Shown here: positions 1 to 12,522 of the stretch, in pieces | How positions within the stretch are numbered: position 1 is the stretch's first letter | How the letters are laid out: every line of letters starts with the position of its first letter | Origin: a virus | IMG/VR virus record: IMGVR_UViG_3300021440_000003 | Location: 1-64,000 of that record | Length of the DNA stretch: 64,000 bases | Reading direction: 5' to 3' (one strand) | Made by a program: the position numbers and the translations under genes | The notes under the pieces: generated by a model | What the model was told of the DNA's origin: nothing | Databases searched by the model: none | What the model saw: only the letters and a program-made list of their open reading frames with translations

Positions 1-193
1 AAGCCTTCAGACCAAGCCAAGCAAGCCCAAACCAAGTCAAACCTCTACTGTCGAGACCCAAAAAACGCGCAGATGCAAGCTCATTTTGGCATCTTCCGAA
101 AATTAGCCTTGCCAAAAGGACGCTGTTTTACACAAAAAACTGTCATTTTGTAACAAGATGTAACGCTAAGTTGGGTTAGTACTCACTATCGAC

Positions 194-202
194 TTATCCA
201 CA
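194..202 (+). promoter_or_regulatory. Single perfect DnaA-box consensus TTATCCACA
   Basis: Exact 9-mer next to the IHF-like site; function not demonstrated. Confidence 0.35.
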
Positions 203-211
203 ACCCCCCTT

Positions 212-453
212 TATAAATCAACAACTTATTTGGATAAAGGTAGTAAGTCAGAGGTCAAAAATCGGAAAACAAAATAGTCAAATAGTTTGTTTTGATTCAA
301 GAAAACAGTGACTTAGAAGCCCAACTTTTGACTTCGGCAAGTGTTTTAGGGAAGAAAAGTCATTTTTTTTTCGTTCTGATTTCCCTCCTTATACGATTTT
401 TCAAAACACCTCTCGGATTTCCACTTGCTATCCACGTAAGTTGTTGATTTATA
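212..453. repeat. 17-bp perfect inverted repeat (212-228 / 437-453), each arm matching the IHF consensus WATCAANNNNTTR
   Basis: TATAAATCAACAACTTA at 212-228 and TAAGTTGTTGATTTATA at 437-453, in an AT-rich ORF-poor region. Confidence 0.75.
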
Positions 454-606
454 TAGACCCCCAAAAAAATCAAAAAATGCACCATTTTGGTGCATCGCCC
501 GATTTTCCTACCACACCCGACTTGCACTGTCAAGAAATTTTTGCTTCCTGACAGTTTCCTGTCATTTTTCACCCTATCTAGTATACTAGTATCGGGTACT
601 GACCCC

Positions 607-1158
607 ATGTTCACATCCAAAGTACCCCACTTGCACCCCGCCAACTACCACACAATCCTTACACTTGCCCAACGAACCAAGGGCAAACCCAACTACTCAA
701 AGAACCACAGACTGGTAATCACACCCACATCCGTGGAAGTGCTCTTGCATCACACCAACATCCTGATCTACCACAACGACAACACCCTCACCATAACCAA
801 TGGCGGGTGGGATACCCCTATGACCCGGGCATACCTGCGGGCTTACACGGACCACCCCCACCTTGCCCTGGACACACCCACCCGCATAACCCTCACCTCC
901 CCGGCCATCGTGCACCGGCCCAGATCCGACTTCACGAAGACAGTCCGATCCGCCAAAGTGCCCGAGGCCATGAAAGGGATGAGCCGACAATTCCAAGACG
1001 GCCCCTACTACCTGCGAAACCTTGCCCAACCCGTCACCAAAAGGAGCTACGCCTTACGACACCACTACCGAGACGCCTTCAAGCACAAGGAAGTGCCCTA
1101 TACCGGCCCTGAGATCTTCATGGGCGAACCGGGCTACATCCCGCTTACCCAAGCCTAA
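607..1158 (+). CDS. Hypothetical early phage protein
   Basis: ORF 487..1158; ATG at 607 preferred; contains ITNGGWDTPMTRAYL. Confidence 0.6.
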   Translation: MFTSKVPHLHPANYHTILTLAQRTKGKPNYSKNHRLVITPTSVEVLLHHTNILIYHNDNTLTITNGGWDTPMTRAYLRAYTDHPHLALDTPTRITLTSPAIVHRPRSDFTKTVRSAKVPEAMKGMSRQFQDGPYYLRNLAQPVTKRSYALRHHYRDAFKHKEVPYTGPEIFMGEPGYIPLTQA

Positions 1159-1178
1159 AACCCAAAAAGGAACCAACC

Positions 1179-1790
1179 ATGTCCGACCAACTCACCCCCG
1201 CCCAAGAAGCCCTTGCCGCCCCCTACGTGGCCAAATACACCGCCATTGGCCTGCGTACCACCCCCGAGAACACGCAAGACCGCACACTTGCAGCCAAGGC
1301 CGCTGAAGCCTTCTTGCGGGCTGACACCAACTTTGACCAGTCCCGCCCCTGCATCCACATCGACACCGCGTCCGACCCCGACCTCACACTTGCCCTCGGC
1401 CCCGACCACAAAGGCCAGGACATGAAGGCCATGTACATCGTGACCGGGACTTGGCCCCACTTGGTTGCCCTTGCCAAGAAATTCACAGGCAAGAACGACG
1501 TGTCAGACGCCTTCTGTGTCTCGCAGTACGCCGCCCACGCCCCGGCCCATGCCACCTTCATGCGGGACGTGCTTGGCGTCAAGGGCATTGACGTGCAGAC
1601 TGACGCCTTGGATGGCTTCTCTCGGCACTGCGGCGTCACCTTGATCTACGAAAAGGCCATCTTCGTTGGCGACCCACCTGTGGCCTTCAAGGAAACCGCC
1701 GATGGCAAGCTCGACCCGATCTACACGAACGCCGAGGCCCATCAAGCAGGCTTGACCACGCCTGAAGGCTTGCCCTTGGCCGATGCTTGA
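1179..1790 (+). CDS. DUF6745-like protein lacking the internal tetrapeptide-repeat region
   Basis: SD AAAGGA upstream; N-terminal LTPAQEALAAPYVAKYTAIGLRT and C-terminal FMRDVLGV...SRHCGVTLIYEKAIFVGDPP resemble the family's LTPEQ..W..I.LST and CGW..P.E.....RP segments (recalled, not searched). Confidence 0.6.
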   Translation: MSDQLTPAQEALAAPYVAKYTAIGLRTTPENTQDRTLAAKAAEAFLRADTNFDQSRPCIHIDTASDPDLTLALGPDHKGQDMKAMYIVTGTWPHLVALAKKFTGKNDVSDAFCVSQYAAHAPAHATFMRDVLGVKGIDVQTDALDGFSRHCGVTLIYEKAIFVGDPPVAFKETADGKLDPIYTNAEAHQAGLTTPEGLPLADA

Positions 1791-1990
1791 CACAACGCCC
1801 CACAGGACCGCCAAGAACGGCCTGTGGGCCTCCAAATGACCCTTGGCAAGCCCAAACCCCCATCCACCATCTCCAACCGCTGGCTGCCCCTTCCATGCGG
1901 CTCCACGCCCCAAGAGATGAACCCAGTCGGCAAGCGCATATTCGCCAGACTTGCCAAGCTGTGGAAAAAGCGAATCTAAAGGAACCCACC

Positions 1991-3025
1991 ATGTCCAAAC
2001 TCTCCATCGAACAATCCGCCCAAGCCATCCTTGCCTGCCCCGCTGTGACTTTCTCGCTCGAAGGCCCGCCCGGAGTCGGCAAAACTCACGGCATCTCCGC
2101 CCACTTGCGCGAAGCTGGCTACACCGTTCACATCATGCCTTGCCAGAACATCCCGGCCGAGGACACGGCAGCCTTGCCTGTGGTCAAGAAAAACGGGACT
2201 GTGGACTTCGCTACCCCCGAAATGTGGCACCCCGCACCCAAGACGGCCTTCATCCTTGACGAGTTGTGGAAAGCCCCGGACGACATTCTCAACGCCTTCT
2301 TGCCCATGGTGCACGGCTTTCCCCGCACCTACATGCACCATGAGTACCCCGAGGACACCATTGTTGTCGTGACCGGCAACGCTGCTGAGTTCCGTGTGGG
2401 AGACAAGTTCAAACCGCACATGGGCAACCGAGTGGTGTCCATCGAGGTGGATGACCCCACACTTGCCGAGGCCACGCAAGTCATGCTTGACCGGGGTGTG
2501 GATGCTCGCATCATCGAGTGGGTGCGTGTCAACCCGCAGGCTTTGAAGTCTTTTGATCCGCAGGCTCAGACGAGGCCCGAGACGGAGTTGATGAACTACT
2601 ACGGGTACGACCAGCGCCACCCCAAGCGCAAATTCTGCTCGATGCGCAGCTTGGAGCTTGCCTCCAACGTCATCAAGTCCGTGCCCGAGGGTGTGCGCCA
2701 GTCCTGCTTGCAAGGCGCGATCGGCCAGAAAGCCGCTTCCAACCTTGAACACTTCCTGCGCGAATCCGCAGAGTTCATCCCGCTTGCTGACATGGTGGAC
2801 GGGACCGCGAAAGTGCCCAAGCAACTGTTCGATCGACGGCTTGCTGCGATCACCGCAGCGTCCGGGCTTGACGAGAGCAACTGGAAGCAGCTGCTCAAGT
2901 ATGCGGAGCGACTTGGTTCGGAGTTGAAGCAAGTGTTCCTGCTGAACGCGAGCCGCAAGAAAGTGAGTGCCGACTTGCTGGTGAAGTCCCAGACGTGGCG
3001 AAACGAGCTTGCCGTGATTCTTTGA
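1991..3025 (+). CDS. MoxR-like AAA+ ATPase
   Basis: Walker A GPPGVGKT, Walker B FILDE, sensor VTGN, arginine finger MGNR; SD AAAGGA before ATG 1991; VWA partner downstream. Confidence 0.85.
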   Translation: MSKLSIEQSAQAILACPAVTFSLEGPPGVGKTHGISAHLREAGYTVHIMPCQNIPAEDTAALPVVKKNGTVDFATPEMWHPAPKTAFILDELWKAPDDILNAFLPMVHGFPRTYMHHEYPEDTIVVVTGNAAEFRVGDKFKPHMGNRVVSIEVDDPTLAEATQVMLDRGVDARIIEWVRVNPQALKSFDPQAQTRPETELMNYYGYDQRHPKRKFCSMRSLELASNVIKSVPEGVRQSCLQGAIGQKAASNLEHFLRESAEFIPLADMVDGTAKVPKQLFDRRLAAITAASGLDESNWKQLLKYAERLGSELKQVFLLNASRKKVSADLLVKSQTWRNELAVIL

Positions 3026-3028
3026 CGA

Positions 3029-3061
3029 AAGGAGGGCCGGGCGCAAGCCCGGCTTGCCATG
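3029..3061 (+). promoter_or_regulatory. SD - GNRA hairpin - ATG translation initiation element
   Basis: AAGGAGG (3029-3035), stem GCCGGGC-GCAA-GCCCGGC (3036-3053), 5-nt spacer, ATG 3059. Confidence 0.55.
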
Positions 3062-3211
3062 AGACTTGACAAGCCGAATGCTTATGTGTGGGACCAAGTG
3101 TGGGGCCAAGTGCTGGACCAAGTGTGGGACCGAGTGTGGGGCCAGGTGCGGGACCGAGTGCTGGACCAAGTGTGGGACCAAGTGCGGGAACGAATCAGGA
3201 GCAAACCATGA
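3059..3211 (+). CDS. VWDQ-repeat microprotein A1 (50 aa, MRLDKPNAYVWDQ...IRSKP)
   Basis: Hand-translated; stop overlaps the next start (ATGA). Confidence 0.7.
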   Translation: MRLDKPNAYVWDQVWGQVLDQVWDRVWGQVRDRVLDQVWDQVRERIRSKP

Positions 3212-3396
3212 AACTTGACAAGCCTGGTGCTTATGTGCGGGACCGAGTGCGGGGCCGAGTGTTGGACCAAGTGTGGGACCAAGTGTGGGGCCAAGTGCTG
3301 GACCAAGTGTGGGACCGAGTGTGGGGCCAGGTGCGGGACCGAGTGCTGGACCAAGTGTGGGACCAAGTGCGGAACCAAATCAGGAGCAAACCATGA
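3208..3396 (+). CDS. VWDQ-repeat microprotein A2 (62 aa)
   Basis: SD AGGAG, ATGA coupling, MKLDKPGAY...IRSKP. Confidence 0.7.
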   Translation: MKLDKPGAYVRDRVRGRVLDQVWDQVWGQVLDQVWDRVWGQVRDRVLDQVWDQVRNQIRSKP

Positions 3397-3628
3397 AACT
3401 TGACAAGCCTGGTGCTTATGTGCTGGGCCAAGTGTCGGTCCGAGTGCGGGACCAGTGCGGGACCGAGTGCGGGACCGAGTGCGGGACCAAGTGCGGGACC
3501 GAGTGCGGGACCGAGTACCGTACCAGATTCGGGACCGGGTGTGGGGCCAAGTGTCGGGCCGGGTGCTGGGCCAAGTATGGTACCCAGTGCGGGACCAAGT
3601 GCGGGACCGAACCAGGAGCAAGCCATGA
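3393..3628 (+). pseudogene. VWDQ-repeat microprotein A3 with a 1-nt deletion near 3453
   Basis: GACCAGTG instead of GACCAAGTG shifts into the CGTE/CGTK frame (stop 3635); repaired frame ends TRSKP* at 3628. Confidence 0.6.
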
Positions 3629-3800
3629 GACTTGACAACCCGAATGCTTATGTGCGGGACCACGTGTGGGACCAAGTGTCGTACCTAGTGTGGGACCAAG
3701 TGCGGGACCGAGTACCGTACCAGATTCGGGACCGAGTGTGGAACCAAGTGCGGGCCAAGTTATGTATATAGTGGTGGACCAAATCAATACCAAACCATGA
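3625..3800 (+). CDS. VWDQ-repeat microprotein A4 (48 aa to TAG 3771; 1-nt deletion near 3753, repaired frame ends INTKP* at 3800)
   Basis: MRLDNPNAYVRDHVWDQ...; SD AGGAG; ATGA coupling. Confidence 0.6.
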
Positions 3801-3943
3801 CACTATCCAACCCATACCGGCCCGGCCACTGGTCAGCGATGACAGCCCGTATCTACACCCTAAACAGTAACCTCTGGTTCTACACATCCCATCGCACATG
3901 GACCCCAGTGTGGGACCAAGTACGAGGACGAATATGTATCTAG
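3797..3943 (+). CDS. Diverged microprotein A5 (48 aa, MTLSNP...PVWDQVRGRICI)
   Basis: ATGA coupling; keeps a VWDQV unit near the C-terminus. Confidence 0.55.
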   Translation: MTLSNPYRPGHWSAMTARIYTLNSNLWFYTSHRTWTPVWDQVRGRICI

Positions 3944-4146
3944 GCGAACACAACAGGCACACCGTAGAACGGCTCAGCAGCAGAGTCTTATACGCATTGT
4001 TGGACATAGCGACCGATCAGATACCAAACCACGTGTGGAACCAATCCACCGAGATCACCTGGCAAGCCTGCTACCTAACAACCTCAACCATAAAAGCATC
4101 ATGTTTACTCAAGACGACCTCTCCAAACTCACAAAATCCCTCGTGA
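3934..4146 (+). CDS. Diverged microprotein A6 (70 aa, MYLGEH...HVWNQ...)
   Basis: Overlaps the end of A5; residual DQIPNHVWNQ. Confidence 0.45.
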   Translation: MYLGEHNRHTVERLSSRVLYALLDIATDQIPNHVWNQSTEITWQACYLTTSTIKASCLLKTTSPNSQNPS

Positions 4147-5324
4147 CCCGCTTGCCACACATCGAACCCTTCCTGTTCGTCATACCTATGCGTGTCCTCT
4201 CACCCGAGGAGTACCAAGCCAAGATCCCCGCCCACCTCCCGCAGACGGCGGCTTGCACCTCGACCGAGTTCCTGTTCCAGTCGGAGTTCATCGCCCAAGC
4301 CCCCGCCCCGCAGCAGCGCGGCTTGATCTTGCACGAGATTCTGCACGGTGCGTTGGAACACTTGTCCCATCCTTGGCGTGACAAGACGATCACCGAGGAG
4401 TCATTCTTCCGCTTGCGCAACATCGCCCAAGACGTGGTGGTGGAGAACTTCGTGGCAGAACTGTCCGAAGCCGACCAGCCGGGGGTTAAACCTGCCGACC
4501 GGTACATTCAGAACTTCATGCCCTTGCCCGACAGCTACGCCAAGTACAAGGGCTGGAACTGGCGTGATGTGTACGAGGACTTGCGCTCTCAAGCCGATGT
4601 GCAGCCCAACGATTCATTCGACCACCACGGATACGGGGACGACAACACCCCCGAGGCCGCGCAAGCCCGAGCCGAGGCCGAACGCTTGTGGAAGTCCGCC
4701 CAGAAAGCCTCCGAAGCCGCCCGCCAAGCACTGGCTGGAAACGCCCCCGGCATCGACAACATCGCTATCACAGCGGCTGCCGAGAAGGTGCGCTGGCAAG
4801 ACACCCTTGCTGACTTCCTGCAATCCATCCCCAGCCCCGAGCGCAAGACTTGGACCAAGGTGCGCCGCCGCCCCTTCTGCACACGCCAAGAGTACCGCCC
4901 GTCCAAGACCGGGGAGCAGCCCGCCCTTGACCACGTGTACCTGTTCGTTGACACGTCCGGCTCCATGCACGGAACCTTGGCCACTGTGGCCGCCGACATT
5001 CTTGGCCTGATGCGGGCCGTCCAAGTCAGCACACTGGAGATTGTGTATTACGACGTGGGGGTGCAGCGCCGGGACGTGATCGACTTCGACGACATGGAAG
5101 GCTACACCATCACCTCCATGCCCGGAGGCGGAGGCACTGCCGTGCGCCCTGCCATGGAAGAAGTGGTTGGCAGCCCCGACTACGTGCAAGGTGCTCCGTT
5201 CGTGGTGTTGACCGACGGATACGACGATTACAACATCGGCAGCTTGCCCACCGGCCCACTTGTCTGGCTGTCCTATGAGAAGCCCGTAAACAGTGACCGG
5301 GGTGTGTCCTTGCTGGTCAAGTGA
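4101..5324 (+). CDS. HEXXH metallopeptidase-like + VWA domain protein (DUF2201-like)
   Basis: LILHEILH and NIAQD in the N-terminal half; MIDAS DTSGS, GGGGT and VLTDG in the C-terminal half. Confidence 0.85.
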   Translation: MFTQDDLSKLTKSLVTRLPHIEPFLFVIPMRVLSPEEYQAKIPAHLPQTAACTSTEFLFQSEFIAQAPAPQQRGLILHEILHGALEHLSHPWRDKTITEESFFRLRNIAQDVVVENFVAELSEADQPGVKPADRYIQNFMPLPDSYAKYKGWNWRDVYEDLRSQADVQPNDSFDHHGYGDDNTPEAAQARAEAERLWKSAQKASEAARQALAGNAPGIDNIAITAAAEKVRWQDTLADFLQSIPSPERKTWTKVRRRPFCTRQEYRPSKTGEQPALDHVYLFVDTSGSMHGTLATVAADILGLMRAVQVSTLEIVYYDVGVQRRDVIDFDDMEGYTITSMPGGGGTAVRPAMEEVVGSPDYVQGAPFVVLTDGYDDYNIGSLPTGPLVWLSYEKPVNSDRGVSLLVK

Positions 5325-5331
5325 GGCTTAC

Positions 5332-5496
5332 ATGAGACTTGACAAGCCGGATAGAGAGGTGTGGGACCAAGTGCGGATTCCAGTGCGTATACAAGGGCGA
5401 TACCAATTGGTGCACCAAGTGTTGGACCAAGTGTGGGTCCAAGTGCGGGACCAAGTGTGGGACCAAGTGCTTGATAAACTAAGGAGTAAGCCATGA
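5332..5496 (+). CDS. VWDQ-repeat microprotein B1 (54 aa)
   Basis: MRLDKPDREVWDQ...LRSKP; GAGG SD. Confidence 0.7.
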   Translation: MRLDKPDREVWDQVRIPVRIQGRYQLVHQVLDQVWVQVRDQVWDQVLDKLRSKP

Positions 5497-5753
5497 GACT
5501 TGACAAGCCGAATAGTTGGGTGCTGGACCAAGTGTGGGTCCAAGTGCGGGACCAAGTGTGGGACCAAGTGCGGAACCAAGTGTGGGGCCAAGTGTGGGGC
5601 CAAGTGTGGGACCGAGTGTGGGGCCAAGTGCAGGGCCAAGTGTGGGACCGAGTGTGGGACCAAGTGCGGGGCCAAGTGCAGGACCAAGTGTGGGGCCAAG
5701 TGTGGGGCCGAGTGTGGGGCCGAGTATGGCCCCTAATTAGGAGCAAGCCATGA
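5493..5753 (+). CDS. VWDQ-repeat microprotein B2 (86 aa)
   Basis: SD AAGGAG, ATGA coupling, MRLDKPNSW...IRSKP. Confidence 0.75.
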
Positions 5754-5848
5754 GACCTGACAAATCGGATGCTTATGTGCGGGGCCAAGTGCAGGGCCAA
5801 GTGTGGGTCCAAGTGTGGGACCGAATCGAAGGCAGGTATGAGACTTGA
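5750..5848 (+). CDS. VWDQ-repeat microprotein B3 (32 aa)
   Basis: [13 protein letters not shown]...IEGRYET; SD AGGAG. Confidence 0.6.
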   Translation: MRPDKSDAYVRGQVQGQVWVQVWDRIEGRYET

Positions 5849-6020
5849 CAAGCCGAATGCTTATGTGTGGGACCAAGTATGGTACCCAGTGCAGGACCTG
5901 GTGCGGGGCCAAGTGTGGTACCCAGTGTGGGGCCAAGTGCAGGACCAAGTGCAGGGCCAAGTGTGGGTCCACGTGCGGGTCCAAGTGTGGGACCGAATCG
6001 AAGGCAGGTATGAGACTTGA
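5838..6020 (+). CDS. VWDQ-repeat microprotein B4 (60 aa)
   Basis: MRLDKPNAYVWDQ...IEGRYET. Confidence 0.65.
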   Translation: MRLDKPNAYVWDQVWYPVQDLVRGQVWYPVWGQVQDQVQGQVWVHVRVQVWDRIEGRYET

Positions 6021-6102
6021 CAAATCGGATGCCCGAGTGCAGGACCTGGTGCGGGGCCAAGTGTGGGTCCAAGTGTCGGACCTAATCAGGAGCAAGCCAT
6101 GA
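6010..6102 (+). CDS. VWDQ-repeat microprotein B5 (30 aa)
   Basis: MRLDKSDARVQDL...IRSKP. Confidence 0.6.
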   Translation: MRLDKSDARVQDLVRGQVWVQVSDLIRSKP

Positions 6103-6251
6103 GACTTGGACACCGGAATCTGGCCTCATGGAGCAGACTAAGAAGCCAGATATTGAGTATATCCGGTGATCTATCGTGGAATAAATCATCTACATTTATA
6201 TGGTCAGACGTGTGGCTTAAAGTATGCAAACGACTCAATAGCAAACCATGA
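6099..6251 (+). CDS. Diverged microprotein B6 (50 aa, MRLGHR...VWLKVCKRLNSKP)
   Basis: SD AGGAG, ATGA coupling, conserved termini. Confidence 0.65.
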   Translation: MRLGHRNLASWSRLRSQILSISGDLSWNKSSTFIWSDVWLKVCKRLNSKP

Positions 6252-6405
6252 AACTGGAAAACCTTACGCTAACATCCACTTGTGGGACCTTATCCGATAC
6301 CCAGTTATGGAACAAGTTGCAGACAGCATCCGCTCGCAAGCCCGAACTTGCACTAGGTACCGGGTGATTAGTGTGGTGTGGCAGAAAGTATGGATACAAG
6401 TATGA
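6248..6405 (+). pseudogene. Diverged microprotein B7, apparent 1-nt deletion after MKL
   Basis: Repaired frame reads MKLGKPYANIHLWDL...VWQKVWIQV* and is ATGA-coupled at both ends. Confidence 0.5.
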
Positions 6406-7081
6406 TATGCGGTAAGGGCATAGGTAGACTTACTCATACCTTAGTTTGGCGTAAGGTACCAGATTTATCCATAGTACTACTATTCTTCAGGTCAATTGGC
6501 TCGCAAGTAGAGCAGAGGATATATGGAACTTCACTATCCCTATGATGGCATTTTCGGGCGTATATGGACAGGTATCCGTCTAGTTACACCTTACATGGTA
6601 CATTACCACGGGCAAAAACTGGTGCAATACCCCACGGCCGGAAGCGTATGGGCTATAACAAGGAGAGATCGTGGCACTTGGTAATCATTCACCAACGCCA
6701 ACAATCGACTCCTTTTGGAGTCGAGTATTAAGGCAGGTAGTGAGGCAAGTCCGTATCCCAAGGCGAAGTCAAGTATACGACCTTGTATCGGACAAGATAT
6801 TCTACGTGATAGCGGCAAAAATTCTATGACTCTAGGACAAAGCGACAGGGCGTACCTGTCATCCATCTTCTACGGTATTCGTGCAGCCACAACAACATTA
6901 GGCCGCGATCTAATTCAAGTCCCAATCTTCGCTAAATGCTTTCTAGGAGTTAAACATGAAACTAGGTAAATACAAACTGCCCATCGAGCTTTCATTCAGT
7001 GACCTACTGTACTGGTGGGAGCCGATGCTAGACTTGTCCCACGACCTGTACCACGCCAGCCTTAAAGGACTCAAGAAGTGA
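6402..7081 (+). CDS. Five further overlapping micro-ORFs B8-B12: 6402-6545, 6523-6684, 6671-6829, 6826-6969, 6956-7081 (41-53 aa)
   Basis: Hand-translated, gap-free tiling; starts MICGK, MELHY, MALGN (GTG, SD AAGGAG), MTLGQ, MKLGK (SD AGGAG). Confidence 0.55.
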
Positions 7082-7704
7082 GCAACGTATTTCGCCGCCT
7101 GCTGCTTGACCAACTCCAAGGCAGGGGCTATGGCAAGTACGACTTGGAGTGGAACGTACGCTGTGACTACTTCGACACTGACGAGGTGATGGCCTTGGCC
7201 GATGCTGAGAACATCATGGAAATCGACGTGGAACAACTGTGGGACGAGTCTGTCGAATCCGCCCGCGAAAGTATGGACAGTGACGACGGTTATCGGTCCT
7301 ACAGCCCCGCGACAGCAGCCCGCTACGGCTTGCCCTACCACGGCAAGCGCAAGTACAAGCGACATACGGACGAAATGGCCTACTACCCAGCAGGCAAGCC
7401 GGGCTGGATCTTGGTCAAGCCGTACGTTAACAGTCACTTCGACTGCAACTTTGAGCTCCAAGGGCGGCAAGGCAAACACCTTGTCCTGACCGAGTTCGAG
7501 GGCCACGAGTGTACTGACTTGGAGACCTCCATACAGGATGGTGTGGTATCCAACGAGTGGTGCCGCAACTTGCTTGCCATGCTTGAGGAGTGGGATGTAT
7601 GTTTTACGCCACAGAACGCTACTGAGCATGTGAAACACAACATGGTGTTTCGAGTAGAGCAGGACTACCAGCAGATGCTGGAGGAGTGGGAGGAGGCTTG
7701 GTGA
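7078..7704 (+). CDS. Hypothetical acidic protein
   Basis: 208-aa ORF, GTGA-coupled, SD AAAGGA. Confidence 0.75.
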   Translation: MSNVFRRLLLDQLQGRGYGKYDLEWNVRCDYFDTDEVMALADAENIMEIDVEQLWDESVESARESMDSDDGYRSYSPATAARYGLPYHGKRKYKRHTDEMAYYPAGKPGWILVKPYVNSHFDCNFELQGRQGKHLVLTEFEGHECTDLETSIQDGVVSNEWCRNLLAMLEEWDVCFTPQNATEHVKHNMVFRVEQDYQQMLEEWEEAW

Positions 7705-7850
7705 GATTAGGCCGACGATCACCACGCGGTACACAGTACGATGTGTACCGAAAGTGTGCGCCCGTACCCATGGACGTGCTCAACAAATCATTTTCCATGC
7801 TATGGACCACGGTACGTGACCACGTATTCAAGAGGATTTTCAGGCAATGA
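7701..7850 (+). CDS. Diverged microprotein C1 (49 aa, MRLGRR...LWTTVRDHVFKRIFRQ)
   Basis: SD GGAGGAGG, coupled at both ends, MRLG start and VRDHV unit. Confidence 0.6.
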   Translation: MRLGRRSPRGTQYDVYRKCAPVPMDVLNKSFSMLWTTVRDHVFKRIFRQ

Positions 7851-8104
7851 CCACTTCAAAACTCTCTACATTGAGACAGCCCATTGAGCCGCTGCCTGAC
7901 AACTGGGCTTGGAATGACGGGTTCCCCACCTTGACAGCAGTTGCTGCGTTTTTTGTAGCATGTTTCACAGTTTACTGTCTATGCGAATTGGCAGCAAAGC
8001 GTGTCCAACGCTTGTTTCGTGGTACAGTCCCACACCCAGAGCAAGTGAAGATACTGTTGAACAAGGCTAACCGAGACGTGCGACGGAGACCCAGATGTCT
8101 GTAA
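7847..8104 (+). CDS. Hypothetical membrane protein
   Basis: 85 aa with one hydrophobic segment. Confidence 0.55.
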   Translation: MTTSKLSTLRQPIEPLPDNWAWNDGFPTLTAVAAFFVACFTVYCLCELAAKRVQRLFRGTVPHPEQVKILLNKANRDVRRRPRCL

Positions 8105-8316
8105 CCCTGTACGGAGTACCTGACCCAGACCCTGCGCTGCTTGACGCGGTGACTGAGTGGCTGGGTGACAGGGACGCCACGATACTGTGCCACCAGCGCA
8201 CACCAATCGACGCCAGACCTTGCCAGTACCCCGGCCGCTTGCGATACGAGCTTGTCATCAACGGAACTGCGTATGCGGCGTACCAAGAACGTACCGGAAA
8301 GATAACCCTGCCATGA
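8095..8316 (+). CDS. Hypothetical protein
   Basis: SD GGAG, tiles with its neighbours. Confidence 0.55.
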   Translation: MSVTLYGVPDPDPALLDAVTEWLGDRDATILCHQRTPIDARPCQYPGRLRYELVINGTAYAAYQERTGKITLP

Positions 8317-8654
8317 CGGAAATTCAAATAACGGTGCTCACGGAGCTGGCCAAAGGCCCGCAGCTCATGAGCCACCTCGACACACTTGGCGAGCGCCAAG
8401 CGCAAGGCCGACAGGCTGCGACCTACCTTGTCAAGCACCGATTCGCCGAGTTCATCGGCCAGAGCGTGCTAATCACCGCGAGCGGACGCAACCACTTGGC
8501 CAAGATCAATGGTGACCCCGACTTTGCTGTGGCCCAGCCGCGCCAGGTGTTCCACACCGGGCAGTATGTGCCCAAGGCATGGCATACGAGGGAGGGTTCG
8601 CAGCAAGCGGGCCAGCTCCCCAGCTTGCTCTTTGGAAAGCAACATGCAGCCTAA
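8313..8654 (+). CDS. Hypothetical protein (possible winged-helix N-terminus)
   Basis: ATGA-coupled start MTEIQITVLTELAKGP. Confidence 0.55.
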   Translation: MTEIQITVLTELAKGPQLMSHLDTLGERQAQGRQAATYLVKHRFAEFIGQSVLITASGRNHLAKINGDPDFAVAQPRQVFHTGQYVPKAWHTREGSQQAGQLPSLLFGKQHAA

Positions 8655-9449: not shown

Positions 9450-9808
9450 TGGGCCACTACAGCGACTCGGAGCTGGTGGGCGTGGCCTTGGCCTCCATGA
9501 AGGCCACAGGCGTGCGCATCGTCAACCAGCTGGACCCGTCCAGTGACGAGGACGAACGACTGCTGGATGTGGCGCTGGATGAGCTTGAAAACTTCATCCA
9601 CGCGAACCACGTGACGTACGGTCCTCTTTACGAGGCCCCGCACCAGGCCATCATGGACGCCATTACCTTGGGCGGCTTTGTGGCCTGCCCTACAGCGCAG
9701 ACAGCCAAAGACTTGTTTGCGATTTTCAACATCCACGGCGAGACGTATGCCAGCGGGCTGTACGCCGAGATGTATCTCGACGGGCACCTCGTGGGAGAGA
9801 ACACATGA
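9449..9808 (+). CDS. Hypothetical protein
   Basis: SD GGAGG, TGATG overlap. Confidence 0.6.
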   Translation: MGHYSDSELVGVALASMKATGVRIVNQLDPSSDEDERLLDVALDELENFIHANHVTYGPLYEAPHQAIMDAITLGGFVACPTAQTAKDLFAIFNIHGETYASGLYAEMYLDGHLVGENT

Positions 9809-10108
9809 ACAACTCCGGCATCACCACCGCCGCCATCGTCCTGCTCATTGCGACAGCGGTGGCGAGCTACCTGGCTCTCCTGCTTGCCATCGACATGACG
9901 ATTGACCTGTACCACAAGTTGACTTCAAAGAAGGACCCGAATTGACCTACATCCTTGCGGCACTGGCCGCCATCTTCGCCGTGGCCGCGTACCTGTGCAT
10001 GCTCACCAGCATGACTGGCACTCAGAGCAAGTTGAAAACCACAGCCGCCTTGGCTTGTGTGGCAGGTTCCTTCGCTTGCGCGGTAACACTTGCTTGGAGG
10101 GTACTGGC

Positions 10109-11183: not shown

Positions 11184-12210
11184 CCTACAAGTTCCGTTTA
11201 CGTGATACCTGCGACAGTGAACTTCGCAGGCAAGCCCGCTCCGTCAACCTTGTTTGGAATTACTGCAACGAACGCCAGAAGGAAGCCGTCAACAAGGGAC
11301 GCAAATGGCCCAGCAAGTACGACTTGCAAAAGTTGACAGCAGGAAGCTCGAAAGAACTTGACATACACGCGCACACCATTCAGGGTGTTTGCCGCAAGTA
11401 CGACGACAGCCGTAGGACACACAAGAAAGCCTCCCTGCGCTGGCGTAGCAACAAGAAGTCGCTCGGTTGGGTGCCATTCAACCAAGGCACCGTAAGGTAC
11501 AGCAATGGGTCGTTCTGGTTCCGTGGGCGCGAATACAAGGCATGGGTCAGCCGCGACCTCCAAGAAGGTAAGACGTTTGGGGCTGGTTCGTTTAATCAAG
11601 ACTCTCAGGGTCGTTGGTATATCAACCTGCCCGTAAAAGTCGAATGCTTGCAAACCGCACAAGGCGACGCCATTGGGGTTGACCTTGGTCTAAAGGAATT
11701 GGCTGCAATCAGCAACGGAAGCAAGATTGAGCACCCTACTCACTACCGCCGCATGGAGCAGCGCATTGCCACGGCTCAGCGAGCAAAGAAAAAGAAGCAA
11801 GTCAAAAAGTTGCATGTCAAGGTAAAAACCAACGCAATGACTTCTTGCACAAAGAATCAACCAAGCTGGTAAAGCAGCATGGTGCGATATTCGTCGGCAA
11901 CGTAAAGCCATCCGCCATCGCCAAAACCCGCATGAGTAAATCAGCACTCGATGCTGGTTGGGCAATGTTTAAGCAGAAACTTCAGTACAAAGCCATTAGG
12001 CATGGAGTTATGTTTGCGGAGGTCAACGAAGCCTATTCAACCCAGACCTGTTCTTCATGCGGAAGCGTGGAGGGGCCGAAAGGTGTCGCAGGCCTTGGAA
12101 TAAGGCGATGGACGTGTAGTTGTGGCGCGGAACATGACCGCGACACAAACGCTGCACAGAACATTGCCCGCAAAGGACTATTTGCGCTTGCAGAAGGAGC
12201 CTCAGCATGA
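11174..12210 (+). pseudogene. tnpB: TnpB RNA-guided nuclease, frameshifted at an A5 run near 11824-11828
   Basis: N-terminal TYKFRL, RuvC-I GVDLG, zinc finger CSSC..CSC, RuvC-III DRDTNAA; one extra A restores VKNQRNDFLHK. Confidence 0.85.
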
Positions 12211-12306: not shown

Positions 12307-12522
12307 GTGAGCAAGACACTTTGGAAGTGGGAGCAGAACGGCAACGGCGGCGAGAACGGCACAGCCACCTACTTCCCCGGAACCGTTTACGAGATCAGCG
12401 TGCAACTACCCACGTTCATCGAGGCGAACCACCTCTACGGTTGCATCGCTGCGACAATCCGCGACGAGCGACTTGCTGCGAGGGGTGAGCTGCTTGCTCA
12501 GATCGGGAGGTTGAAGCCATGA
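12307..12522 (+). CDS. Hypothetical protein
   Basis: 71-aa ORF coupled to the next start. Confidence 0.55.
   Translation: MSKTLWKWEQNGNGGENGTATYFPGTVYEISVQLPTFIEANHLYGCIAATIRDERLAARGELLAQIGRLKP

Follow-up and report, generated by a model that had tools for sequence, protein, structure and literature searches.

Tandem arrays of tetrad-repeat mini-genes beside a repeat-less DUF6745-like gene in an uncultured freshwater phage

DUF6745 (PF20530) is a family without known function, and a literature search by that name found no paper. In most phages it is a single protein in which a variable x-Q-V-x tetrad tract lies between a helical N-terminal domain and a C-terminal one. This form is represented by a protein of Microcystis phage LMM01 and by the long-type proteins of four IMG/VR phages (L131, L075, L098 and L078), with the tract contained in one polypeptide of about 370-580 aa. 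In other uncultured phages (for example L130, L019, L017 and L023), tandem Q-V genes of 50-90 aa stand beside a tract-less DUF6745 gene; our literature searches found no account of mini-gene arrays beside repeat-less DUF6745. A tetrapeptide-repeat protein of another kind, a tunable counter-defence, is gp54 of mycobacteriophage Tweety (with Che8 gp57 and PMC gp51). According to PMC2884959, gene 54 has a 12-nt/4-aa repeat whose number differs between close relatives, and whose third codon positions are invariant while the first and second vary. A review (PMC9262239) has Tweety escape the Phrann gp29/gp30 defence through changes in repeat number. Its repeat is A-A-x-x rather than x-Q-V-x, and it is a single protein rather than a library of small genes. 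No Pfam family matches gp54 at E≤0.1, and it was rejected as a DUF6745 homologue (hhalign probability 0.07%); it is used here as an analogy for function only, not as a homologous protein. Finally, in Klebsiella phage KP8 a gap of 10 nt separates an AAA ATPase gene from a DUF2201_N-DUF2201 metallopeptidase gene; dCTP deaminase follows, and there is no array either in the gap or downstream of the pair.

The window analysed here is a 64-kb stretch from an uncultured freshwater phage. It contains two rows of very small genes, which lie on the + strand like all the other features described below. We read the region, with a probability of about 0.6, as encoding a DUF6745-type protein in split form, interrupted by an AAA+/VWA-metallopeptidase gene pair that is unrelated to it. 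On this reading the core gene is that at 1179-1790, which has no tract, and small genes in two tandem arrays would encode the tract in its place.

The proposed core encodes a repeat-less, divergent DUF6745-like protein of 203 aa, truncated at the C-terminus. Pfam and PHROG scans of this protein gave no match. Aligned by hhalign with five repeat-less DUF6745 proteins, it gave a probability of 98.2% (E 5.3e-14), with residues 1-179 matched to columns 16-164 of 301, and an HMM built from the same five matches the relatives' copy of the gene (E 8e-7). The AF2 model of the protein has a pLDDT of 76.3, and a fold search of BFVD ranks the DUF6745 protein of LMM01 first (E 9.2e-5). Its homology to the tract-bearing proteins covers their N-terminal domain (LTP.QEA...Y...W..IGL.T) and the first half of their C-terminal domain; about the last 130-150 residues of the family are missing. 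The cores beside the arrays of other phages differ in being full length (274-301 aa) and in passing PF20530, and the truncated core here, which fails the Pfam model, may have ceased to function as a complete DUF6745 does. The initial annotation had called this gene DUF6745-like and grouped it with the micro-ORFs, an assignment that these matches and the complex model described below bear out.

The tetrads of the fused tract are absent from the core and recur here in 12 separate cassettes. Each cassette has a head starting ATGAGACTTGACAAGCC, a number of 12-nt units with the consensus GTGTGGGACCAA, and a tail ATCAGGAGCAAACC that runs into ATGA, so that the tail holds the Shine-Dalgarno sequence (SD) AGGAG and the stop codon TGA overlaps the next ATG. 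Cassettes measure 149+12k nt, which shifts every ORF back by one frame relative to its predecessor. The product of an intact cassette is 30-86 aa long, with the head MRLDKP (the heads in other phages include MKSVKNQV, MKLKSV and MNSVKNQV), a V-W/R-D/G-Q/R tetrad tract and the tail IRSKP. The M-[RK]-L-D heads, SKP ends and four-residue period had all been noted before and are present as described, as are the AGGAG sites and ATGA overlaps, which are held by the cassette tails. Tandem Repeats Finder places the 12-nt unit at 3086-3608 (42.8 copies), 3652-3760, 5414-5469, 5528-5729 (16.8 copies), 5777-5819, 5865-5994 and 6049-6076, and also finds a 36-nt period; at a higher order it detects periods of 149, 161 and 185 nt, each spanning a whole cassette.

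Cassettes were counted with an nhmmer model of the tail/SD/start/head junction (E<0.05) over the whole window. This gave five starts after the AAA+ gene (3059, 3208, 3393, 3625 and 3797) and seven after the VWA/metallopeptidase gene (5332, 5493, 5750, 5838, 6010, 6099 and 6248), with no junction signal past 6263. The micro-ORFs are a genuine family of related small genes in two tandem arrays, but the arrays are smaller than the initial annotation held, which counted about 19 members, with 6 after the first gene and 12 after the second. The ORFs at 6956-7081 and 7701-7850 were rejected as members (hhalign probabilities 0.8% and 3.6%), the latter having been listed as one.

In array A, cassette 1 (3059-3211, 50 aa) is intact by the nhmmer model and has no SD because of the hairpin upstream of it. 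Cassette 2 (3208-3396, 62 aa) is intact, with its AGGAG and ATGA overlap. Cassette 3 (3393-3635) leaves the tetrad frame through a 1-nt deletion, an 11-nt unit near 3450, and the tetrad frame goes on over 3455-3628 to an RSKP-stop. Cassette 4 (3625-3771, 48 aa) keeps its head and tract and has lost its tail, with TKP-stop in another frame, and cassette 5 (3797-3943) is degenerate (nhmmer E 0.019). Array B, identified by nhmmer throughout, begins 3.5 kb from the core gene with two intact cassettes, 5332-5496 (54 aa) and 5493-5753 (86 aa, the longest tract). These are followed by 5750-5848 (32 aa, alternative tail EGRYET), 5838-6020 (60 aa, alternative tail, 11-nt overlap with its neighbours), the intact 6010-6102 (30 aa), 6099-6251 (50 aa, head and tail kept, tract diverged) and the degenerate 6248-6367 (E 4.4e-4), which has tetrad remnants in another frame. 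In sum, nine cassettes keep the tetrad frame intact, one has a frameshift, and the two at 3797 and 6248 are degenerate, having lost both SD and repeat. Since 3 of the 12 are broken, the array is in part not maintained but decaying.

All six frames are open across the repeat, so open frames by themselves are no evidence of coding, and intact frames within one array are weak evidence, because a repeat that grows in 12-nt steps keeps its frame automatically. The repeats could accordingly function at the DNA or RNA level, for instance by forming an array to which protein binds, a sponge RNA or a repeat RNA like that of type III antitoxins, and the ORFs would be incidental; the 36-nt period and the GGA motifs that recur every 12 nt would suit such a role. 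We consider this most improbable. No Rfam family matches the repeats, the SD-ATG-stop architecture is regular, and the motif is identical to the protein tract inside DUF6745. The evidence of coding comes from comparison. The tetrad motif is conserved as protein while its codons differ between loci: across 42 array loci Q is CAA or CAG and V is GTC, GTT, GTG or GTA, nearly uniform within one locus and different between loci. RNA-library contigs from two studies cover parts of the region, at a depth of 2-4, and may stem from DNA carry-over.

An exhaustive search with the 86-aa protein of 5493-5753 found 989 representatives at E≤0.001, and among the best 150 of these all but one are 165-2154 aa long. 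Ten were scanned (ranks 1 and 3-11; rank 2, of 1756 aa, was left out), and PF20530 was found at E≤0.001 in eight of them, seven above its cut-off. In P0031 the tetrad tract is followed by PF20530 (E 8e-24). A degenerate DNA pattern for D-Q-V-W-D-Q-V-x-D-Q-V with free third positions matched at least 120 IMG/VR stretches; by our arithmetic it carries about 47 bits, so that fewer than one chance match is expected.

Among the 120 phage loci listed, 40 have at least two mini-genes, with up to 16 in one locus. A repeat-less DUF6745 of at least 250 aa is found in 16 of these 40 and a tract-bearing DUF6745 in none. In the other 80, tract-bearing DUF6745 occurs in 53 and the repeat-less form in three, each of which has one mini-gene. 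Arrays and internal DUF6745 tracts are mutually exclusive among the 120 loci listed, these counts not being independent since the loci were chosen by a pattern already demanding Q-V tetrads and several are duplicates of one sequence. Arrays and DUF6745 also co-occur at the level of whole records: PF20530 is present in 24 of 46 records with an array or a single mini-gene, including both of those that are at least 90% complete, and most of the 22 that have no DUF6745 are small fragments, less than 20% complete.

The initial annotation had further proposed that the microproteins are adaptors, substrates or decoys of a machine formed by the flanking AAA+ and VWA-metallopeptidase proteins. Both genes are real. 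The AAA+ ATPase (1988-3025, 345 aa) matches phrog_1297 (E 1.3e-28) and, below the cut-off of 22 bits, AAA_5 (17.5 bits, E 0.004). The HExxH metallopeptidase with a VWA-like domain (4098-5324, 408 aa from the ATG, with a GTG at 4035) matches DUF2201_N (28.4 bits, E 1.6e-6) and DUF2201 (41 bits, E 2.5e-10), both above cut-off, and phrog_1314 (E 3.5e-37); homologues at 21-26% identity are found in N4-like phages, Bacillus phage G and cyanophage S-TIM5. The arrays lie directly 3' of both genes, in the close relative L010 as well as here, and everything is on one strand with short gaps. However, the VWA domain PF09967 occurs in only one of the 46 mini-gene records, that of a close relative, and the VWA gene is absent from the other 45, as against the 24 with DUF6745. 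A VWA homologue is present in 28 GenBank phage records, and in KP8, the one whose gene neighbourhood was inspected, genes of the same families in the same order are adjacent and array-free, whereas here a 1-kb array separates the pair and a second array follows. The arrays thus occur independently of the pair elsewhere, an outcome that the initial annotation itself had counted against its proposal, and in KP8 the pair stands without an array. We conclude that the AAA+/VWA pair is a separate phage module, apart from the repeat arrays, and regard service to the machine as improbable, while a local functional tie may exist.

Comparison with L010 demonstrates that the arrays change fast. Genes of the window are 91.5-94.1% identical to those of L010 in DNA, and the AAA+ ATPase is 96-97% identical in L009 and L010, whereas the arrays are only 56-59% identical, their alignments containing 326-512 gap columns. 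In the 79 units of the window the third codon positions are nearly invariant (77, 79, 78 and 74 of 79), with variation at positions 4, 5, 8 and 11 of the unit; the same codon-position pattern is described for Tweety gene 54 (PMC2884959). Change comes by gain and loss of 12-nt units and whole cassettes and by base changes at first and second codon positions, with distal cassettes decaying. It could be argued that the arrays are functionless by-products of a former DUF6745 tract, produced by slipped-strand expansion and by duplication, and drifting to decay. One cassette is indeed frameshifted and two or three are degenerate, the arrays grade from clean repeat at the 5' end to unique sequence at the 3' end, and DNA-run contigs join across parts of them (these may be variants or assembly artefacts). 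Set against this, nine cassettes here and nine in L010 keep head, SD, start, stop overlap and tail while their tracts differ, and arrays constructed in the same way, though from different heads and codons, occur in the 40 array loci above. We give this explanation little chance.

For the mini-proteins themselves, AlphaFold2 models the 50-aa product of 3059-3211 alone as one long helix (residues 6-48, pLDDT 80.3). In a complex model with the core protein it is predicted to bind with a score of 0.72, the best of three controls scoring 0.01. This score is the model's own confidence, obtained with a mini-protein alignment of nine rows. Among 80 solved complexes 58 attain the mark, as against 2 among 110 mismatched pairs, counts that hold only roughly here because our own alignments were used. 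At least 95% of contacts are shared between runs, and the partner has a pLDDT of 82 or more. The contact residues of the core, 96-128, bracket S109/D110, the position of the tract in fused relatives (alignment A7). The mini-protein helix would therefore lie on the segment where those relatives carry their tract, and its head would pack against core residues 156-160, which are strands in the stand-alone AF2 model.

The mini-proteins might instead act alone, for example as free amphipathic helices with host proteins or membranes as targets, or by assembling with one another, their place beside DUF6745 reflecting only an origin from its tract. The helix modelled for the isolated protein agrees with this, as do the truncated and divergent core, the distance of array B from it and the mini-gene records that have no DUF6745. 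The fragmentary state of most such records argues against it, as do the absence of tract-bearing DUF6745 from all array loci, with the repeat-less form in 16, and the complex model with its contacts at the tract site. We therefore think it unlikely, and prefer a split DUF6745-type protein. In such a system each intact cassette would yield one amphipathic helix with a short conserved head and tail, and one core could display many alternative helices. Putatively the cassettes are translated, probably in a chain, since the SD of a cassette sits in the preceding tail and stop and start codons overlap. By analogy with Tweety gp54, the likely arena would be phage-host or phage-phage conflict; an anti-defence role, as had been suggested, is a putative one drawn by analogy. 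Early expression, also suggested, gains no support from position: the 127-bp terminal repeat of the record has the size expected from assembly overlap of a circular contig, so that base 1 need not be a physical end.

It is worth adding some observations on the sequence around the cassettes. A G+C-rich hairpin (3031-3058; MFE -22.2 kcal/mol, z -3.3) lies between the AAA+ stop and the first cassette; it has no T-run, was not listed by the terminator scan, and has a counterpart in L010 whose stem is identical but whose loop differs (-17.9 kcal/mol). The ORF at 3898-4146, which overlaps the VWA gene start, is the remnant of a sixth cassette, recognisable as such only through the homologous L010 ORF at 9744-9938, which starts MQLDDP and keeps tetrads. 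Beyond array B, 6368-6955 is an A+T-richer stretch of small ORFs (6378-6955) in which the nhmmer junction model finds no cassette signal. Most of this stretch appears, from a comparison of ORF lists rather than an alignment, to have no counterpart in L010; its last 100 nt or so match the L010 ORF at 12311-12421.

The mini-genes of this region are a real family of small genes, and they represent detached copies of the tetrad tract found inside DUF6745 proteins (Pfam PF20530). Each intact mini-gene, or cassette, has a head (MRLDKP), a tract of V-W/R-D/G-Q/R tetrads and a tail (IRSKP). All of the genes lie on the + strand, beginning with that for a 203-aa protein, here called the core (1179-1790). 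Next come an AAA+ gene (1988-3025) and array A (3059 to about 4100), and then a metallopeptidase/VWA gene (4098-5324), with array B (5332 to about 6370) after it. The full IMG/VR record is 72,401 bp, of which the window is the first 64 kb. Among the genes of the window, a PHROG search identified those for a tape measure, a tail fibre, a family-A-like DNA polymerase and a primase, and the record is therefore that of a tailed phage.

Tandem Repeats Finder detected a 12-nt unit over 3086-3760 and 5414-6076, together with cassette-length periods of 149-185 nt. The cassettes are built of the head, a variable number (n) of tetrads and the tail, with the Shine-Dalgarno sequence AGGAG located in the tail, and the stop of one overlaps the start of the next as ATGA (with an 11-nt overlap in two cassettes). 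Given that cassette length is 149+12k nt, successive ORFs step back by one frame. A junction model for nhmmer, trained on 15 junctions from the window and from its close relative, the locus L010, found 12 cassette starts in the window at E<0.05, none of them beyond 6263. Nine of the 12 are intact, each being a small ORF that has a start and a stop to itself and encodes a tract of x-Q-V-x tetrads. The initial annotation had described about 19 related microproteins; it was correct as to the kind of object, while the count comes to 12 plus one remnant, and the ORFs at 6956 and 7701, which it had included, are unrelated (hhalign probability 0.8% and 3.6%).

There is a gradient along the arrays, from clean repeat on the 5' side to degenerate cassettes on the 3' side. 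Cassettes 3797 and 6248 have lost both the AGGAG and the tract. Cassette 3393-3635 contains one 11-nt unit (a 1-nt deletion) near 3450 and there leaves the frame, with the tetrad frame beyond the deletion open to the usual RSKP stop (3455-3628). The cassette may have become a pseudogene recently; that the deletion marks a frameshifting site is less likely. No indel variant at this deletion is listed in the freshwater DNA-run contigs. A separate observation is that an out-of-frame tail, ...ESGAN.ET, is common to the L010 cassette 11966-12154 and an independent metagenome protein (P0008), which implies that such a frameshifted tail has been retained by more than a single genome.

All six frames are open across the repeat, and a 12-nt unit keeps frame by itself, so that neither feature counts as coding evidence; the open frames are also a reason why gene callers may mis-call the mini-genes. 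Comparison between loci is more informative. A DNA pattern made degenerate at every third codon position matched at least 120 stretches in IMG/VR, where its information content of about 47 bits (our own arithmetic) gives an expectation of fewer than one match by chance. Across 42 array loci, the glutamine and valine codons are nearly uniform within a locus and differ between loci (CAA or CAG; GTC, GTT, GTG or GTA), with the consequence that the other two forward frames vary and the x-Q-V-x frame alone is conserved. This comparison argues strongly for the tetrad frame as the one that encodes protein, a statement about the family that does not extend to the translation of every cassette in the window. 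When the 86-aa product of 5493-5753 was searched against 5.8 billion proteins, 41 of 172 candidates matched at E≤0.01, and these include A+T-rich mini-proteins with other heads, as well as longer proteins in which the tetrads stand between two domains.

The longer proteins identify the tract. An exhaustive HMMER search of 1.84 billion representatives with the same 86-aa query returned 989 proteins at E≤0.001, 174 of them at E≤1e-10. Among the best 150 of the 989 matches, 149 are of 165-2154 aa and one is of 84 aa. Ten of the best eleven were scanned (all except rank 2, a protein of 1756 aa), and eight of them contain PF20530 at E≤0.001, seven above the cut-off. In the protein P0031, the tetrad tract is followed by a PF20530 domain (E 8e-24). 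Taken together, these matches lead to the conclusion that, as judged from sequence, the mini-proteins are free-standing copies of the central DUF6745 tract. We note that some very long proteins (P0046, P0105, P0120 and P0134, of 1621-2154 aa) also carry this tetrad tract. The 86-aa product in addition scores 27.6 bits on the Pfam model DUF4816 (cut-off 29.4), with weak matches for P0048 and P0053 as well, and this Pfam family may describe a related repeat.

GenBank phages were also searched. There was no match to the 86-aa protein by tblastn or to window 1-8000 by blastn, and since the BLAST low-complexity filter probably masks the repeat, these blanks are no evidence of absence. The C-terminal domain of DUF6745 was found in 11 of 50,697 GenBank phage records, in each case covering at most 73% of a repeat-less query (that is, a DUF6745 protein lacking the tract); in the one record inspected, MW202476, the match lies inside a 425-aa CDS, consistent with the fused, tract-bearing form. 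No split form in a cultured phage was found among the GenBank phages searched, whereas the fused form does occur in cultured phages, in the family of Microcystis phage LMM01. DUF6745 itself is not mentioned in any of 8.4 million texts searched, and a literature search on tandem arrays of tetrapeptide-repeat small proteins in bacteriophages returned nothing on such arrays.

The core gave no Pfam or PHROG match. PF20530 was absent from it at E≤0.1 (cut-off 27 bits) and from the whole 72.4-kb record at E≤10. Its only relatives in a large protein collection, P0042 (96% identity) and P0043 (35%), likewise lack PF20530. More sensitive comparisons do place it. The core alignment (A3) was compared using hhalign with an alignment of five repeat-less DUF6745 proteins from array loci (A4), the first member of which, from L132, scores 130.7 bits on PF20530; the two match with a probability of 98.2% (E 5.3e-14) over residues 1-179 and 145 aligned columns, and an HMM of A4 matches the relatives' 203-aa ORF with E 8e-7. 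The AF2 model of the core (pLDDT 76.3) has as its first-ranked BFVD match the model of the DUF6745 protein of Microcystis phage LMM01, with E 9.2e-5, probability 1.00 and a TM score of 0.45 normalised to the query. In the PDB, Foldseek found nothing at E≤0.001 and VIA-align reached a Z of at most 5.4; the lack of a solved relative does not imply a new fold.

The alignments also show where the core departs from the family. It has an insertion of about 30 residues after the N-terminal domain, and both it and P0043 end after the block preceding RLH, so that the last 130-150 or so columns of the family are missing (alignments A5 and A7) and the complete set of C-terminal blocks (GPA..Y.DG, WHG, EQRR, CGTGR and EVRT) is not found in the core. 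It has no tetrad tract, and the window thus contains a repeat-less DUF6745-like gene alongside its arrays. Profile and fold both match, yet some 130-150 residues are lost, and we conclude from these comparisons that the core is a divergent, truncated relative of DUF6745, not a full member.

It had been proposed that the arrays belong to a module with the AAA+ and VWA genes embedded among them. Of the at least 120 loci matching the degenerate pattern, 120 were fetched and sorted by script with regular expressions. At least two mini-genes were found in 40 of the 120 loci, with up to 16 in one of them (L130). Within these 40, a repeat-less DUF6745 protein of at least 250 aa is present in 16 and a tract-bearing one in none, whereas the remaining 80 loci have the tract-bearing form in 53 and the repeat-less form in three, each time together with a single mini-gene; selection by motif, sorting by regular expression and the presence of duplicate sequences mean that these counts are not independent. 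In 46 whole records with arrays or a single mini-gene, PF20530 is present in 24, including both of those at least 90% complete, and the VWA-like family PF09967 in one, the window's close relative; most of the records are fragments, which makes absences weak evidence, although the contrast between the two families is still clear.

Conversely, in one phage inspected the pair occurs without arrays. The AAA+ protein, a putative member of the AAA_5/MoxR class, scores below the cut-off for AAA_5 (17.5 bits against 22) and matches phrog_1297, annotated 'ATPase', with E 1.3e-28. The VWA gene product matches DUF2201 (41 bits, cut-off 26.4) and DUF2201_N (28.4 bits, cut-off 23.2), and has both a VWA-like domain and an HExxH metallopeptidase domain, the motif being visible as HEILH. 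Neither protein gave a significant match to PDB sequences, the AAA+ protein finding just midasin at E 0.31. Homologues of the VWA/metallopeptidase with 21-26% identity were found in 28 GenBank phage records, among them N4-like phages, Bacillus phage G and cyanophage S-TIM5. In the one record inspected, that of Klebsiella phage KP8, the AAA ATPase and metallopeptidase genes are separated by 10 nt and followed by a dCTP deaminase gene, with no array. These observations speak against a joint module, and support the view that the arrays are tied to the repeat-less DUF6745-like core.

A complex of the core with the 50-aa product of 3059-3211 was predicted from alignments of 17 and 9 rows respectively, with three controls. 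This pairing obtained a score of 0.72, compared with 0.01 for the best control. In calibration, 58 of 80 solved complexes and 2 of 110 mismatched pairs scored at least as high, counts that apply roughly here since the alignments were self-supplied. Three runs had at least 95% of contacts in common, with a pLDDT for the partner of at least 82. The contacts of lowest predicted error place residues 2-7 of the mini-protein against core residues 156-160, which are strands in the stand-alone AF2 model, and the rest of the mini-protein is placed against core residues 96-128. Predicted alone, the mini-protein is a single helix (residues 6-48, pLDDT 80.3). In alignment A7, the tract of four fused relatives falls between S109 and D110 of the core, which is inside the contact zone. 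The model supports, and does not show, binding of the mini-protein to the core.

By DNA comparison, the arrays change far faster than their surroundings. Between the window and L010 the flanking genes are 91.5-94.1% identical, and the arrays 56-59%, with 326-512 gap columns; the cassette heads of arrays A and B number 5 and 7 in the window and 3 and 6 in L010. In 79 units of the window, a count biased to clean units by a filter allowing at most 3 mismatches, the third codon positions are nearly invariant (77, 79, 78 and 74 of 79). The variable positions of the 12-nt unit are 4, 5, 8 and 11, which means that every common change alters an amino acid. Freshwater DNA contigs from two runs join 3356 to 4060, 3646 to 5639 and 5468 to 5543 across parts of the arrays. 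These joints may reflect arrays of different length existing side by side, or misassembly caused by the repeats, and the contigs were placed at 90% likeness, a level prone to the latter.

A tentative reading, to which we give a probability of roughly one in three, is that the phage has split a protein, keeping a constant core and encoding the single-helix inserts separately in its genome as an interchangeable library, diversified by 12-nt slippage and cassette turnover. The inserts would snap onto the core at the site of the former tract, and so present many variants of one binding surface in each infection against variable host defences; the AAA+/VWA-peptidase encoded nearby might also serve to load, exchange or clear the helices. 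If true, the arrangement would form a combinatorial counterpart, at the protein level, of diversity-generating systems, and if the docking holds, the arrays would be a new viral way of encoding diversity in small genes. DUF6745 with the tetrad tract is frequent in phage and metagenome data, as seen from the 989 representatives and the at least 120 IMG/VR stretches, and the split form offers a handle on its function, with a tract that is apparently separable and predicted to dock back on the core. Particular to the window are a truncated core missed by Pfam, a head (MRLDKP) different from those elsewhere, arrays interleaved with an unrelated AAA+/VWA gene pair and visible decay of the distal cassettes.

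The nearest functional precedent, by analogy, would be gp54 of phage Tweety. The passages on gene 54 in the 2007 report (PMC2884959) describe 48 tetrapeptide repeats, with different numbers in Che8 and PMC, and third codon positions that are invariant while the first and second vary. The arrays of the window show the pattern of codon-position and repeat variation described in those passages. A section of a 2022 review (PMC9262239) states that mutants escaping the Phrann gp29/gp30 defence are altered in repeat number. The gp54 repeat is A-A-x-x, in contrast to the x-Q-V-x tetrads of DUF6745 and the mini-proteins. Homology between gp54 and DUF6745 was considered and rejected (hhalign probability 0.07%; gp54 has no Pfam family), and gp54 therefore serves as an analogy and not as a family assignment. 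By this analogy, the mini-proteins may have a role in conflict, as counter-defence.

Two metatranscriptome runs, from different studies, contain contigs of at least 99% identity and depth 2-4 at 1484-1684, 2029-3026, about 3821-3976, 6121-6337, 6366-6516, 6739-7089, 7291-7441 and 7946-8487. Such contigs show neither strand nor ends, and could include DNA carry-over, and are at most a hint that this region is transcribed. They are absent over the clean repeats (about 3125-3690 and 4000-5960), where a depth of 2-4 is uninformative. We infer that the mini-genes are translated. Predicted promoters (5 sites, compared with a mean of 4.0) and terminators (7 compared with 9.2) are not above those in shuffled sequence, and hence transcription units cannot be stated; searches for Rfam families and tRNAs were negative. 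A G+C-rich hairpin (3031-3058; -22.2 kcal/mol, z -3.3) follows the AAA+ stop, ahead of the first cassette. As it has no T-run, it may act in RNA processing or stability and not as a terminator. A counterpart in L010 (9042-9067) has an identical 9-bp stem and a different loop (GCAA compared with UUUC).

The 'direct terminal repeat' of the record is of 127 bp (window 1-127 being the same as record 72275-72401), and is probably the overlap that an assembler leaves on a circular contig. With a repeat of just this length, base 1 is not demonstrated as a physical end; the map may be circular or permuted, with an arbitrary start, and the position of the genes at the 'left end' was dropped as a sign of early expression. 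Of the words sampled from 1179-7850, 85-93% are present in six freshwater DNA runs of 2018, which may be one campaign or the source sample of the record.

It is worth adding some details of the region following array B. A 41-aa non-repeat ORF (MKLGKYKLPIE...) comes directly after the array in both genomes (window 6956-7081, L010 12408-12533; 85% DNA identity). In the window it is followed by a 208-aa gene (7078-7704) with no Pfam or PHROG match, apparently missing from L010 12533-12977. There, the 41-aa ORF is followed directly by a 146-aa ORF, the C-terminal part of which resembles window 7847-8104 in translation. From the sequence comparison, this looks like an indel polymorphism adjoining array B. 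Further on, right after the homologue of window 8095-8316, L010 has an ORF open at the contig end (13269-13856), which may encode a TnpB/OrfB-like transposon nuclease.
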